A DNA stretch of 64,000 nt from an uncultured Methylomirabilota bacterium (GTDB taxonomy: Bacteria; Methylomirabilota; Methylomirabilia; Methylomirabilales; 2-02-FULL-66-22): positions 960,001 to 1,024,000 of the forward strand of contig OY970067.1 in NCBI GenBank assembly GCA_963705305.1. The letters run 5' to 3'. Shown here one piece after another: positions 23,391 to 27,088 of this stretch. The notes beneath the pieces were generated by a model. That model did no database searches, was not told the DNA's origin, and saw only the letters and a list, made by a program, of their open reading frames with translations. The position numbers and the translations under genes were made by a program. Position 1 is the first letter of the stretch, and each line of letters begins with the position of its first letter.

Positions 23391-24809
23391 TCACCCCTCC
23401 AGTGGCGGGCGGCGATTCCGCAGGGGGCTCGCCGTCTCGTACGCGCGGCCGAGGCGCAAGAGCGTGCCCTCATCGAAAAGCCGCCCGATCAGTTGAAGGC
23501 CGATGGGCAAGCCGGCCGTCGTGAGCCCGCACGGCACGGAGAGGGCGGGGTGTCCGGTCACGTTGAAGGGCCGGGTGCAGCGGGTTAGCCACCCGCGGAC
23601 ATCCTGGCGCACCCCCTCCAACGTCACCGTCTCCTCCTCCACCCGGGGGGCCGGGAGGGGGGTGGTGGGCGTCAGCAGCGCGTCCACCCGATGCAGCACG
23701 GCCTCCACCTCGGCCTGGATCACGCGGCGCGCCCGCTGGGCCTTGAGGTACTGCGTGGCCAGCACGAACTGGCCGGTGCCAAGACGCGCGCGGACATCCG
23801 GCCCATACTCTGCAGCGCGGGTTTTGAGGTAGCGCTCGTGATAGGCCGTGGCCTCCGAGGCGATGATGGCGAACGAGGCGGCCCCCGCATGCTGAATCCG
23901 CGGCAGCCGGATCTCTTCCAGCGAGACCCCGAGCGCCTCGAGGGCGTGCGCGGCCCCCTCGACGGCCGAGCGGACCTCGGGGTCCAGCCGCTCGAAGAAC
24001 AGATCCCGGACGATCCCCAGGCGGATGCCCCGGGCATCGCGTTCCATCTCCCGGATATAGTCGGGAACGGGCCGGTCCACTGTGGACGGGTCCCGCGGGT
24101 CCCGGCCCGCCAGAACCTGCAAGAGCAGGCCTGCGTCCATCACCGTCCGGGTCATGGGACCCACGTGGTCCAGCGACCACGCCAGGGGGATGACGCCGGC
24201 CCGGCTCACCCGGCCGTAGGTGGGCTTGAGCCCCACGATGCCGCACAGCGAGGCCGGAATCCGGACCGAGCCGCCAGTATCCGTGCCCAGGGCGCCGGCA
24301 CAGAGATCGGCCGCCACCGCCGCCCCCGAGCCGCTGCTCGATCCGCCCGGCATATGCCCGCGCTTCCACGGGTTTGCCGCCGTGCCGTAATGGGGGTTCA
24401 CGCCGGTGGGGCCATACGCGAACTCGTGCATGTTCAGCTTGCCCAGCAGGATCGCCCCGGCCTGGGCCAGGCGGGCCGCAACGGTGGCATCGGCCTCCGG
24501 CACCCACTCCCGCAGGATGCGAGAGCCGCAGGTCGTCCGGATCCCCCGGGTCATGACCAGGTCCTTCAGCGCCACGGGGATGCCGTGCAGCGGGCCCCGG
24601 TACCGTCCCTGGCCGATCTCCCGCTCGGCCGCCTCGGCCGCGGCGGTCGCCTCCGTCTGGAGGACGGTGAGGTAGCAGTGGAGCGAGCCGTCCAGGCGAT
24701 GGATCCGATCCAGGTAGGCCCGGGTCAGCTCCACCGGAGACAGGGCGCGGCGGCGGATCTGCTCGGCAGCCTCCGCCAGGCTGAGCCGGGTCAACGCATC
24801 AGGCGCCAT
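23391..24809 (-). CDS. Amidase signature family protein (GatA/AtzE-like)
   Basis: GPLHGIPVALKD, GGSSSGS, GTDTGGSVRIPA. Confidence 0.93.
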   Translation of the reverse strand: MAPDALTRLSLAEAAEQIRRRALSPVELTRAYLDRIHRLDGSLHCYLTVLQTEATAAAEAAEREIGQGRYRGPLHGIPVALKDLVMTRGIRTTCGSRILREWVPEADATVAARLAQAGAILLGKLNMHEFAYGPTGVNPHYGTAANPWKRGHMPGGSSSGSGAAVAADLCAGALGTDTGGSVRIPASLCGIVGLKPTYGRVSRAGVIPLAWSLDHVGPMTRTVMDAGLLLQVLAGRDPRDPSTVDRPVPDYIREMERDARGIRLGIVRDLFFERLDPEVRSAVEGAAHALEALGVSLEEIRLPRIQHAGAASFAIIASEATAYHERYLKTRAAEYGPDVRARLGTGQFVLATQYLKAQRARRVIQAEVEAVLHRVDALLTPTTPLPAPRVEEETVTLEGVRQDVRGWLTRCTRPFNVTGHPALSVPCGLTTAGLPIGLQLIGRLFDEGTLLRLGRAYETASPLRNRRPPLEG

Positions 24810-25002
24810 GGGTTTCCTCCGCCGGAGGCAGCAGGACGGTGGCGGGCTCTACGTCGAGCAGGTCCAGCTCGTCCAGCCGGTCCAGCCCGTCGAGCTGGGC
24901 GCCCAGCTGCGCCACGGCGACCGGCAGATCCTGCGGTTCCACCGGAACCCGCGAGAGCTTCTGGCTGATGGTCTTCAAGAGGTGAGCGGTGATGGCCGGC
25001 AT
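24799..25002 (-). CDS. Small amidase partner subunit (GatC/AtzG-like)
   Basis: 67 aa, AGGAGG RBS, overlaps amidase start, C-terminal LDLLDVEPA. Confidence 0.65.
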   Translation of the reverse strand: MPAITAHLLKTISQKLSRVPVEPQDLPVAVAQLGAQLDGLDRLDELDLLDVEPATVLLPPAEETHGA

Positions 25003-25199
25003 GATCTCCTCCTGGAAAGTGGGGATGAACGGGTCGTACTCTAGCAAGCGCGGAGGCGATCTGTCCACCCCAAAGCCGAGGGGGAAAGCGGCAGGAACGG
25101 GAGTTTTTATGCGGGAGTTTTAGGCTGGGGGTCCTGCTGCACAACCAGGCGATGAGATGACTGCACGAGGGTGTTCCGGCGGGCGGGCGGAAGCGAGCG

Positions 25200-25397
25200 G
25201 ACAAAGAAAAAGGCCTCGAAGCATTCACGGCGTGCTGGCCGCCCCGGTGGACAAGGCCGGGAACTTCGAGGCCCGGCGATTGCTGGGATTCCGCAGACGA
25301 AACCCCGGGCGTTCGCCTGAGCGGGGAATCGCCTACGTTACAATCACCTCAGCTGTCCAGTTTAATATGCCCACTGGATCACCTCCTTTCTGCTGTA
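25200..25397 (-). ncRNA. Candidate structured small RNA / micropeptide mRNA with 18-nt complement to the 16S rRNA 3' end
   Basis: AGAAAGGAGGTGATCCAG (25391-25374); 13-aa ORF 25374-25333; stems 25275-25281/25327-25333 and 25212-25221/25264-25273 followed by U-tract. Confidence 0.6.
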
Positions 25398-25402
25398 GCG
25401 CC

Positions 25403-25431
25403 ACCCTACAAAGAACTTTCACCGGACGCAA
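25403..25431 (-). promoter_or_regulatory. Sigma-70 promoter of the candidate small RNA
   Basis: TTGCGT-N17-TAGGGT, T-tract upstream. Confidence 0.55.
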
Positions 25432-25530
25432 GAAAAAAATGCGCGCCAAACGCGTCGATAACGATTTTTTGCGCCCGAGGGGCGCCGAGAGCCTTGAGCT
25501 CTGTCGTGCCACCGGGCAGGAGGGAGAGCC

Positions 25531-25890
25531 ATGGTTGACTGGCCGGAGCTGACCCGACGGAAGAAGCGCCTCAACGCCGAGATCCTGAAAAGCCGCATGC
25601 AGGTCTACTCGCGATTTCAGGAGGCGGGGAAGCAGGTCTTCGCCGACGGCGCCATCAGCAAGAAGCACAAGGAGCTCATGGCCCTGGCGGTGGCCATCTC
25701 CCAGAATTGCTTTGACTGAATCGAGCACCGTGTCGAGGAGGTCCTCGACCTGGGAGGAACCGACGCCGAGCTGGCCGAGGCGTTGGATGTGGGCTTGCTG
25801 ATGGGCGGCACCCTGGCTGTCAAGTCCGTGCGGTATGCCTTCGAGGTCCTGGGAGAGATTCGGAAAGCCAAGGGTTCCGGACGGCCCTGA
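25531..25890 (+). CDS. AhpD-like / carboxymuconolactone decarboxylase family selenoprotein (CxxU)
   Basis: KELMALAVAISQNCFD-TGA(25717)-IEHRVEE...ELAEAL...MGG continues in frame; hairpin GTCGAGG-AGGT-CCTCGAC 25732-25749. Confidence 0.85.
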
Positions 25891-26081
25891 CGCCGGAGAG
25901 GGGGGTTACCAAGAAGTACGCGGCCAGGCCCACCTTGATGGCCACCGGATTTCCGCCCCAGAGGATGGCGAAAGCCCGGCGCCTTCCCCATCTTAGCGGA
26001 CGAGGCGCGTCTCCGGGCTCCGCGCAGAAGCGCAGCCGCTGAAGGTCTCGGGCCGGGTAGAGCGCAGCGATCGGCAAGCGG

Positions 26082-26618
26082 TCAGCCGCCCTCGGGAGTC
26101 CGCGCGTGCTTTCCGGGCTCGGGTGGAATATTCAGGACCTCGCGGGGGAAGTGCTCCACGATGTATTCAACGATGTCCTTCACCGACAGGATGCCTAGGA
26201 TGCGTCGTTCGGCATCTACCAGCGGGACATGCCGGAACCCGCCCACGCTCATCAGTTGCAGGGCGAAGGCGATGGGATCCTCCGGCGAAAGAGTCTCCGG
26301 ATTCCGGGTCATGACCCCGTCCACGCTCACCGCCGCCGGATCATACCCGGTACCCACGAGCTTGGTCAGGATGTCCCGCTCGGTGAAGATCCCGACCAGC
26401 CGCCCGGCCTCCTCCACCAGGACACAGCCGATGCGGTTCTGCTTCATCACGCGAGCAGCGTCCCCGATCGTCGTTCCCAAGGGAATGGAGATGTGGCGGG
26501 CGCGCAGGTGCAACGTGCTGATCGGATTGCCGAACAGCTCCCGACCAAGGACCTTTCCCGCTCCGGACTCGTCCTCGTATCGCAGATCTTCGTCGTAAAT
26601 CGTCTCCCCGGTTTCCAT
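26082..26618 (-). CDS. CBS domain pair protein
   Basis: LVGIFTERDI, VMTRNPET, FRHVPLVD, GILSVKDI. Confidence 0.9.
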   Translation of the reverse strand: METGETIYDEDLRYEDESGAGKVLGRELFGNPISTLHLRARHISIPLGTTIGDAARVMKQNRIGCVLVEEAGRLVGIFTERDILTKLVGTGYDPAAVSVDGVMTRNPETLSPEDPIAFALQLMSVGGFRHVPLVDAERRILGILSVKDIVEYIVEHFPREVLNIPPEPGKHARTPEGG

Positions 26619-26754
26619 GGATAATCCTCCCCCGACCCGTTGCTCCTCTCCGCACAGCGGCCGCACCGGCCGTGCGTGATGATAGGTCGCTGGCCGCCGA
26701 AGCGTCAACCGAAAGATGCCCCACCCGAGACGGATCAGGGAACCTCGCGAAAAA

Positions 26755-26919
26755 TCAGCTCTTTCGAGAGGTTTTGGCGAAGAAGCCGGTCATGAGGGGC
26801 TCGAGTTCGGTGGAGCCGCAGGAAGGGCAGACAGGCTTCTTTTCCTCCCGCTCCCGGATTGTCATGGTGACCGTGAATTCCTTTTGGCACTTGGTGCAGC
26901 TGAATTCGTAGGTCGGCAT
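26755..26919 (-). CDS. FmdB-family zinc-ribbon protein
   Basis: MPTYEFSCTKC...CPSCGS...FFAKTSRKS. Confidence 0.85.
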   Translation of the reverse strand: MPTYEFSCTKCQKEFTVTMTIREREEKKPVCPSCGSTELEPLMTGFFAKTSRKS

Positions 26920-27088
26920 GGCCATCTCTCCTTCCTGCCGCATGTTCGGCCAGGGCAGGACCTGCACTCGCATACAGTGTAGGGCCGAGCACCCGACATT
27001 TCCAGCTTCCAAACTCCTTGACTTCCCCCCCTGCACGCCTACAATCCGCAGGGATGATTTGGTTGACTCGTTGAAACAGGAGGAACCT

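Follow-up and report, generated by a model that had tools for sequence, protein, structure and literature searches.

An RNA of the Ms_IGR-5 family (RF02471) in a Methylomirabilota genome: a candidate small mRNA of the rre type

A stretch of 64,000 nucleotides (nt) from an uncultured Methylomirabilota bacterium (GenBank assembly GCA_963705305.1, contig OY970067.1, positions 960,001 to 1,024,000; hereafter the window, whose numbering is used below) carries on its minus strand, at 25203–25396, a small RNA of ∼ 194 nt. Judged by its covariance-model match, it is the only copy in the host genome of the Rfam family RF02471 (Ms_IGR-5). By analogy with the rre genes of Alphaproteobacteria we lean, with little more than even confidence, towards reading it as a small messenger RNA (mRNA) of the rre type, in which docking on the ribosome and the act of translation, and not the peptide, would be under selection. 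A sequence-only reading of the window had not recognized the RNA as one of a named family and had proposed it as the best candidate for an undescribed system. Neither point stands: the Rfam search that this reading itself suggested returned an existing family above the Rfam cut-off, an outcome that the reading had named as a refutation, and RNAs of the type were described in 2016 as rre genes. What is new is the membership of Ms_IGR-5 outside Actinomycetota, together with details of the fold; the family and the design were already known.

Results

An Rfam family match outside Actinomycetota

A scan of positions 24000–27000 against Rfam matched 25205–25396 on the minus strand to RF02471 with 53.4 bits (cut-off 45, E = 1.9e-10). 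The match is not truncated, running from model position 1 to 184 of 184, and a search of the whole host genome returned this same match as its one copy. The family is named 'Actinobacteria sRNA Ms_IGR-5' (sRNA, small RNA) and was, we presume, first reported in Mycobacterium smegmatis. The element resembles it in the 5′ ACAC, the long Shine–Dalgarno sequence (SD), the GGAC and GUGAGGUG boxes, the position of the stop codon, the CAGYCACC box and a terminator whose loop contains GUCC. It differs in that the host is not an actinobacterium, and the copies of the host's relatives resemble those in records titled Candidatus Methylomirabilis. It also has a perfect 18-nt complement to the 16S tail that reaches the GUG start codon at a spacing of 7, whereas most actinobacterial copies carry G-U pairs and start 10–12 nt after AGGAGG.

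RF02471 scored above its cut-off in 24 of 41 relatives. At E ≤ 0.001 the model matched 17 of the 20 other genomes of the host genus and all five of a sister genus, while three further genera gave no match. A sample of the phylum gave 27 of 151 genomes above the cut-off and 40 of 151 at E ≤ 0.001 (including the unpublished genome G170). All five actinobacterial genomes tested were positive, at 85–179 bits, and two of the four acidobacterial records tested exceeded the Rfam cut-off; the Terriglobales and Pyrinomonadaceae records gave no match at E ≤ 0.001, and one record titled Methylomirabilia scored 27.1 bits. Further relatives were collected with a search pattern made of the SD and an internal box (AGGAGGTGRTCC, 12–40 nt, TGAGGTGRYTG; 23 bases fixed). 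It found at least 120 loci in two of the 64 parts of a species-level genome collection, with ∼ 4100 stretches estimated overall; by record titles, 110 loci among the matches listed belong to Actinomycetota, eight to Acidobacteriota and two to Methylomirabilota. One relative, G013, has two near-identical copies of the RNA (L013 and L029, on contigs C39 and C40). In one case the end of a contig is 45 nt away, and the presence of two copies may reflect a duplication or an assembly split.

Homologues of Ms_IGR-5 have significant ribosome-protected reads in Mycobacterium abscessus and M. smegmatis (PMC4974804). In Streptomyces avermitilis the family is one of two sRNA transcription units that match Rfam (PMC8780764), and in S. 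lividans it was recovered by Rfam and validated by RNA sequencing (PMC8079986). The available portions of these three papers describe no function, open reading frame (ORF) or 16S complement for it. A literature search outside subscription journals found no paper that joins Ms_IGR-5 with the rre genes or gives it a function.

A Shine–Dalgarno sequence complementary to 18 nt of the 16S tail

Plus-strand positions 25374–25391 (CTGGATCACCTCCTTTCT) had been recognized from the letters as the 3′ terminus of 16S ribosomal RNA (rRNA) without other rRNA nearby, and the host's own tail bears this out. The single 16S gene of the host terminates …GCGGCTGGATCACCTCCTTTCTAAGG; all 18 nt are common to it and the small RNA locus, an identity that goes beyond a normal SD, and the flanks differ. 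Within the window, CTGGATCACCTCCTTTCT is the sole site at three mismatches or fewer, where shuffled sequences predict 0.05. Its 13-nt core GGATCACCTCCTT occurs three times in the 5.65-Mb host genome: in the 16S gene, at the small RNA locus and 5′ of one protein gene.

Read on the minus strand, the complement is an extended SD of 18 nt (AGAAAGGAGGUGAUCCAG, 25374–25391) that begins 5 nt 3′ of the 5′ end assigned to the RNA and is predicted to pair with the 16S 3′ tail. Its final G is at the same time base 1 of the start codon, the terminal G of AGAAAGGAGGTGATCCAG being where the GTG at 25374–25372 begins. The computed duplex with the 16S tail amounts to −38.2 kcal/mol, compared with −11.6 kcal/mol for an 8-nt SD. 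An uninterrupted complement of 14–18 nt (G-U pairs allowed) is present in all 136 distinct relatives, 12 nt of it forced by the search pattern itself, and the same 16S tail was found in five of five actinobacterial genomes.

The third occurrence of the core (L002, G000:C1:517970-517982) belongs to a minus-strand gene elsewhere in the host genome, in which a 15-nt perfect complement of the 16S tail (GAAAGGAGGTGATCC) is followed by GAC and ATG. The gene is ordinary-looking, and its first 65 residues have no Pfam match. Since this gene has a 15-nt SD, very long SDs are rare in the host genome, yet not confined to the small RNA.

A conserved small reading frame

The SD leads into a small ORF (sORF) on the minus strand (GTG…TAG, 25333–25374) of 13 codons plus stop, MGILNWTAEVIVT. 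The 13-residue ORF proposed from the letters is real, and its frame is kept in relatives. We compared 136 distinct 5′ parts from the pattern-bearing loci, in which E-V and a portion of the codon after it are set by the pattern, with start, frame and stop left free. An ORF in the same register is present in all 143 pattern-bearing loci. In frame 0, a start codon 7–14 nt past AGGAGG followed by at least ten open codons occurs in 136 of 136 sequences, against five and none in the other frames. The starts are TTG (56), ATG (41) and GTG (39), the stops TAG (114), TGA (12) and TAA (10). In 135 of 136 sequences the stop comes 16 nt past the T of TGAGGTG. Copies with an SD-to-start spacing of 10, 11 or 12 nt (43, 34 and 27, respectively) have an ORF of 12 codons; this length is the same at all three spacings. 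The start register follows the frame and not the SD. Within the host's order, in-frame insertions of 6 and 9 nt result in ORFs of 13, 15 or 16 codons. By eye, the ORF is likewise intact in two covariance-model matches outside the pattern (L019 and L028).

These features could be those of a micropeptide gene with a very strong ribosome-binding site, whose functional product is the 13-residue peptide. Start, frame and stop are present in every distinct copy, all three stop codons are used and the C-terminal half seems at first sight conserved, x(R/W)T(R/C/G)EV. Moreover, RreB and RreR were seen as conserved small proteins by Hahn et al. (2016, RNA Biol 14:1353, PMC5711450), the available portions of which underlie all statements on rre genes made here. 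The codon pattern, however, is the reverse of that expected from protein selection. The sequence reads NGG at codon −8 (R 81, W 40, G 7), AYN at codon −7 (T 108, M 14, I 5) and NGT at codon −6 (R 82, C 23, G 19, S 8). In these conserved codons position 1 is free and positions 2 and 3 are fixed, which points to a constraint on the RNA and not on the peptide; the fixed bases pair in hairpin H1 and in the pseudoknot described below, and the same bases covary with their RNA partners. Residues 2–4 are free. For rreB, translation is reduced by the SD and by the GTG, and the peptides, when synthesized, showed no structure (PMC5711450). We therefore regard a functional peptide as unlikely. The suggestion of a highly translated micropeptide is not supported on either count, since a long SD with GTG depresses translation of rreB and the peptide is not protein-like in its conservation. 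No suitably spaced start codon for a second ORF follows the internal SD-like box, either here or in the actinobacterial consensus.

Fold of the RNA

The minimum-energy fold of the RNA has −91 kcal/mol (z −4.49), and none of 200 shuffles was as good. Covariation, assessed on an alignment of 103 distinct copies (A1, made with MAFFT) and by permutation, argues for hairpin H1, helix P1, the stop-codon stem P2, the terminator and a pseudoknot.

Hairpin H1 (25355–25379, minus strand) joins AUCCAG (25379–25374), the 3′ part of the SD, to CUGGAC (25360–25355), which lies in codons 5–7 of the ORF, and holds the start codon in its loop; it forms part of the minimum-energy fold. In A1 it corresponds to columns 23–28 with 49–54. 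Pair 23–54 is GC in 59 copies, AU in 17 and other in 26 (including the A-C of the host lineage), and pairs 27–50 and 28–49 occur as three to four pair types each. This is the hairpin over the start codon that the sequence-only reading had drawn; the second SD-like box that it placed within the ORF (GAGGTGAT, 25350–25343) is likewise present, as is its 10-bp stem with a U-tract (below).

The internal SD-like box (GAGGUGAU, 25350–25343) lies 6 nt 5′ of the last sense codon and has a computed duplex with the 16S tail of −15.2 kcal/mol. Within the same segment of the minus strand (25341–25350), GGUGAUUG (25348–25341) forms the 5′ strand of P1, which is supported by covariation. The 3′ strand is an anti-SD-like box, CAAUCGCC (25275–25282, minus strand), immediately 5′ of the terminator. 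The consensus of the helix is GGUGRYUG with CARYCRCC. In unfiltered sequences, 124 of 142 relatives give the internal box a best ungapped partner with 8 of 8 positions complementary, mostly at the anti-SD-like motif. In A1, pair 69–200 is CG in 81 copies and UA in 17, and pair 68–201 is GU in 43, AU in 32 and GC in 28. RNAalifold finds P1 and the terminator stem unaided and adds pair 72–197 (CG 53, UG 35, UA 13).

Stem P2 (25292–25337, minus strand) pairs CGUAGGCGA (25337–25329) with UCGUCUGCG (25300–25292) over 9 base pairs (bp) in the minimum-energy fold. A stem had been reported right after the stop codon, closed by 7 bp and multibranched; the stem exists, but it begins 2 nt 5′ of the stop codon, which it includes, and it encloses one hairpin. 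Because MAFFT shifts the register of P2 between lineages in A1, this stem was assessed by permutation. Among 92 distinct relatives, the strands paired with their own partners over a mean of 6.26 nt, compared with 5.16 ± 0.12 for permuted partners; none of 200 permutations reached the observed value, and the stop codon falls wholly within the longest P2 run in 41 of the 92.

The terminator-like element of the minimum-energy fold (25203–25273, minus strand) consists of an outer stem, GGCCUCGAAG/CUUCGAGGCC (25273–25264 with 25221–25212), two inner hairpins and the U-tract UUUUUCUUU (25211–25203); nine of the ten outer pairs show changes on both sides in A1. We propose that the loop of the first inner hairpin, UUGUCCA (25248–25254), forms a pseudoknot with UGGACAG of the ORF (25359–25353), with the consensus GGAYN in the ORF and N′RUCC in the loop. 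In the permutation test, true partners paired over 6.03 nt and permuted ones over 5.53 ± 0.075, the former value again being reached by none of 200 permutations. In A1, pair 54–250 is CG in 74 copies and UA in 15, and pair 58–249 is AU in 28, UA in 23 and GC in 21; the pseudoknot columns played no role in picking or aligning the sequences. As a control, sliding the partners by 1–3 columns lowered pairing from 93–95% to 33–46%. H1 and the pseudoknot share ORF bases and are therefore mutually alternative.

In the minimum-energy fold, the 3′ U-tract (25203–25211) also pairs with the 5′ GAAAGG of the long SD (25386–25391) on the minus strand, and in this model the seed of the SD could be covered by the tail of the terminator. 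The pairing is not a feature of the family, as the U-tract is missing from actinobacterial copies.

Between P2 and P1 lies an unpaired junction, GAAUCCCAG (25283–25291, minus strand), several positions of which are conserved at 90% or more in A1. It would suit a trans-acting regulatory RNA that pairs with other RNAs or binds a protein, with the junction and the loops as working parts and the ORF and the SD serving for stability or localization only. Ms_IGR-5 was discovered and catalogued as an sRNA, the junction is strongly conserved without a partner within the RNA, and the fold is well supported. Against the host rRNA operon (16S, spacer and start of 23S), however, the junction reaches −21.5 kcal/mol where shuffled sequences reach −23.4 ± 2.1, so that no partner was found there; no search for mRNA targets was made. 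Such a role would leave unexplained why all 136 copies retain a start, a fixed frame and a stop along with a match of 14–18 nt to 16S, and we consider it improbable.

Comparison with rre genes and other small RNAs

The rreB gene of Bradyrhizobium encodes an mRNA of 165 nt, of which 17 nt, including the G of its GTG, are perfectly complementary to the 16S 3′ end, and which has an sORF of 14 codons. The RNA co-sediments with 30S subunits, and the 5′ extension of its SD is needed for localization to the ribosome. Translation is weak, owing to the long SD and the GTG, and a change of GUG to UAG raised the half-life from 10 to 37 min. A 20-fold overproduction left growth unaffected, and the authors leave the function open. 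The rre genes are reported in that work only from four alphaproteobacterial orders (PMC5711450).

The element described here resembles rreB and rreR in its design. It is a stand-alone small mRNA candidate (165 nt there, ∼ 194 nt here). The rre genes are defined by at least 16 nt of unbroken complementarity to their own 16S 3′ end (16–17 nt, perfect, in rreB and rreR), and the element has 18 of 18 nt. As in rreB and rreR, the last base of the complement opens a GTG (…CCAG-TG); the sORF that follows, in rre genes of ∼ 14–18 codons, has 13 sense codons and TAG, one codon below rreB. In both cases the complement lies mostly in a hairpin with a free 5′ seed, and the genomic context is conserved in close kin only. 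The differences are that 30S binding, weak translation and start-dependent decay were demonstrated there and are carried over by analogy here, and that the pseudoknot and the SD-like/anti-SD-like helix of this RNA are not described in the available portions of the rre paper (PMC5711450).

Among the roles suggested from the letters was that of an RNA that binds 30S subunits, sequesters them or is protected by the ribosome. Binding and protection fit the ribosome footprints of Ms_IGR-5 and the co-sedimentation of rreB with 30S, while sequestering is disfavoured by the overproduction of rreB. A ribosome sponge, which withdraws or parks 30S subunits, for instance during slow growth, would be in line with the computed −38.2 kcal/mol of the duplex and with rreB being found mainly with 30S. 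Yet the gene is present in a single copy, ribosomes far exceed rreB RNA, growth was unaltered when the ribosome-binding form was overproduced 20-fold (PMC5711450) and the conserved ORF and 3′ domain would be left without explanation. A sponge is thus very unlikely.

CC2171 (RF01867), an sRNA of Caulobacter, has been validated by Northern blot in Methylorubrum, as given in the available part of a preprint (bioRxiv 10.1101/2022.01.24.477521). Its consensus opens with GAAAGGAGGUGAUCCAGUG, identical over the SD and start (first 19 nt), and it too pairs an ORF-proximal strand with a strand just 5′ of the terminator. Membership of this family is excluded by a score of 21.3 bits where 75 would be the cut-off (E = 0.11, 3-kb search).

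Promoter, expression and genomic context

Upstream of the RNA, on the minus strand, lie a T-run (25439–25433) and a −35-like TTGCGT (25431–25426), together spanning 25426–25439, and after a 17-nt spacer a −10-like TAGGGT (25403–25408). This putative promoter, which the sequence-only reading had pointed out, is conserved as a pattern: in 21 of 26 relatives a T-run and TTGCRY are followed after exactly 17 nt by TAnnnW and, another 6 nt on, by ACA(C/G), and by eye three further relatives fit save for the spacing of the T-run. We place the 5′ end of the RNA at the A of ACAG (25396), where ACA is invariant in A1, and its 3′ end in the U-tract.

Contigs assembled from RNA libraries (metatranscriptomes; four runs from four studies) cover 25207–25439, and none falls on 24900–25196, where lack of coverage does not count as silence. 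They derive from relatives that are 88–99% alike, one whole contig of 166 nt corresponding to 25215–25380, and are a weak hint only of expression. Most of the stretch is contained in a single DNA run, which may be the source sample; minor shares found in other sequencing runs correspond to the conserved RNA part.

The neighbouring Pfam families differ in every lineage examined, and the downstream gene is often on the other strand. Other lineages have, for example, aminotransferase/THAP4-like, FHIPEP, M42 peptidase/metallo-beta-lactamase, PAS/SIS, NrtR/MFS, CspA/DEAD helicase or GHMP kinase/secretin families next to the RNA, and an Amidase-family gene lies downstream only in the host's close kin. 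A conserved putative promoter beside neighbours that are not conserved argues that the RNA is autonomous, in agreement with the proposal of an autonomous small transcript.

In the host, the same strand downstream (23391–25003) carries a 68-residue ORF without a Pfam family (24799–25005) that overlaps an Amidase-family gene, and the same pair follows the RNA in the close relatives L005, L023 and L025. The arrangement of a short ORF, alternative pairings and a terminator ahead of same-strand genes is that of a leader-peptide attenuator, which would here govern the amidase genes (24799–25003 and 23391–24809, minus strand) by terminator read-through, and the recurrence of the Amidase-family gene in L005, L023 and L025 fits it. 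As in attenuators of the trpL type, translation would be expected to remodel the fold; unlike them, the RNA has no conserved downstream operon and no runs of regulatory codons. The neighbours vary in all other lineages examined, with several downstream genes on the opposite strand, in L025 an opposite-strand gene intervenes between the RNA and the amidase, and in S. avermitilis the family forms a transcription unit of its own, as stated in the available portion of that paper (PMC8780764). A cis-acting leader of the amidase genes is disfavoured by this absence of synteny, and attenuation appears highly improbable. The SD is also, to our knowledge, far longer than that of any leader-peptide attenuator.

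Finally, a match by chance or a displaced piece of an rRNA operon has next to no probability: SD-like strings are plentiful in genomes of high G+C content and one ordinary gene of this host also has a 15-nt SD, but 0.05 matches are expected in the window, the element is kept across three phyla with covariation, and a remnant of rRNA is excluded by the sharing of 18 nt alone, by flanks unlike 16S and by the lack of an Rfam rRNA match at the locus.

Other features of the neighbourhood were noted. Three long ORFs lie over the element (25157–25552, plus strand; 24791–25228 and 25333–25728, minus strand); they match no Pfam family at E ≤ 0.1 and are taken as spurious in a G+C-rich genome. Within the amidase gene, 24184–24287 on the minus strand weakly resembles the rpfG RNA of Rfam, with 19.1 bits where the cut-off is 75.9 (E = 0.53), probably by chance. 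In the relative G020, a reverse-transcriptase ORF (RVT_1; L025 1828–3192, minus strand) stands immediately upstream of the RNA and looks like a retroelement insertion. On the plus strand, 25531–25890 is an ORF of a carboxymuconolactone decarboxylase (AhpD-like) with an in-frame TGA at 25717–25719 (NCFD-TGA-IEH). Its Pfam CMD match (49.2 bits, residues 25–101) crosses the TGA at residue 63, presumably where relatives carry the second Cys of CxxC, and by eye a hairpin, GTCGAGGAGGTCCTCGAC, lies just 3′ of the TGA, which is a candidate selenocysteine codon.

Discussion

We favour, by a narrow judgement and by analogy with rreB, the view that the element is a small mRNA of the rre type. In such an RNA the unpaired 5′ half of the long SD would serve as a seed and capture a 30S subunit very stably. 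Capture would open H1, in which the start codon is otherwise enclosed and the 3′ half of the SD hidden. Initiation and clearance would then be slow, held back by the over-long SD and by the GUG. A ribosome in the 13-codon frame would unzip the pseudoknot (ORF GGAC with the terminator loop), P1 (GGUGAUUG/CAAUCGCC) and P2 with the stop codon, and with the stop in the A site the internal SD-like box would stand at an initiation-like 6 nt from the P-site codon. As the ribosome would open the structures of the RNA, it would set the fold and probably also its lifetime and decay.

Several points weigh against this view. The rreB RNA shares its design with Ms_IGR-5, not a demonstrable homology, and the two were compared by description. 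Searched through the whole host genome, CC2171, the closest alphaproteobacterial model available, gave no match at E ≤ 0.001, with a Caulobacter control genome positive. Most Actinomycetota start 10–12 nt after AGGAGG, outside the complement, so that hiding of the start codon may be peculiar to the host lineage, and in this copy the closing pair of H1 is an A-C mismatch. The Rfam match to the host 16S gene includes 16 of the 18 nt, the final 2 nt of the complement falling just beyond its end. The large comparison set came from a pattern that fixes 23 bases, and its relatives are not independent, which inflates the counts. Copies in A1 were preselected for a fully paired P1 and at least eight of nine terminator pairs, which makes the paired percentages there circular; the kinds of base change in P1 and the terminator escape this circularity. 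A generic promoter and terminator scan listed neither the promoter nor the terminator of the RNA and gave other sites instead (25067–25038 and 25454–25442). The RNA evidence consists of assembled contigs from relatives, which reveal neither ends nor strand; DNA can be present in RNA libraries, and contig X17 extends into the promoter region, to 25439. For this copy, 30S binding and translation are assigned by analogy, and the transcript ends are predicted ones.

We speculate further, as a tentative possibility, that Ms_IGR-5 and the alphaproteobacterial rre RNAs belong to a single widespread class of RNA switches that sense ribosomes. In such a switch the long SD would report the availability of 30S subunits with a free, mature 16S tail. 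Capture of the SD would free GGAC of the ORF from H1 to pair with the GUCC terminator loop in the pseudoknot. The SD-like/anti-SD-like helix would be an in-cis copy of the SD/anti-SD duplex and be exchanged for the tail of the ribosome at the stop codon, and the output would be the lifetime of the RNA or the exposure of the conserved junction. An SD position (R), an ORF position (Y) and a loop position (R) covary together, and the gap of 6 nt between the internal box and the last sense codon is fixed, as is the offset of the stop (135 of 136); these data are compatible with a switch and are not a demonstration of it. If true, the switch would couple some process to the idle small-subunit pool in at least four phyla.

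For the window, the practical outcome is the annotation of one non-coding RNA/sORF gene of family RF02471. The rre type has so far been described for Alphaproteobacteria only, and Ms_IGR-5 was catalogued but unexplained. The same design, with a shared fold, is kept in the host phylum, Actinomycetota and Acidobacteria: a complement to the entire free 16S tail, a translatable tiny frame with a drifting peptide and an ORF woven into a pseudoknotted 3′ domain. The family is open to study in model actinomycetes, and a conserved RNA that holds on to the site where mRNAs dock on the small subunit offers a plausible way to learn how idle ribosomes are monitored or used by bacteria.

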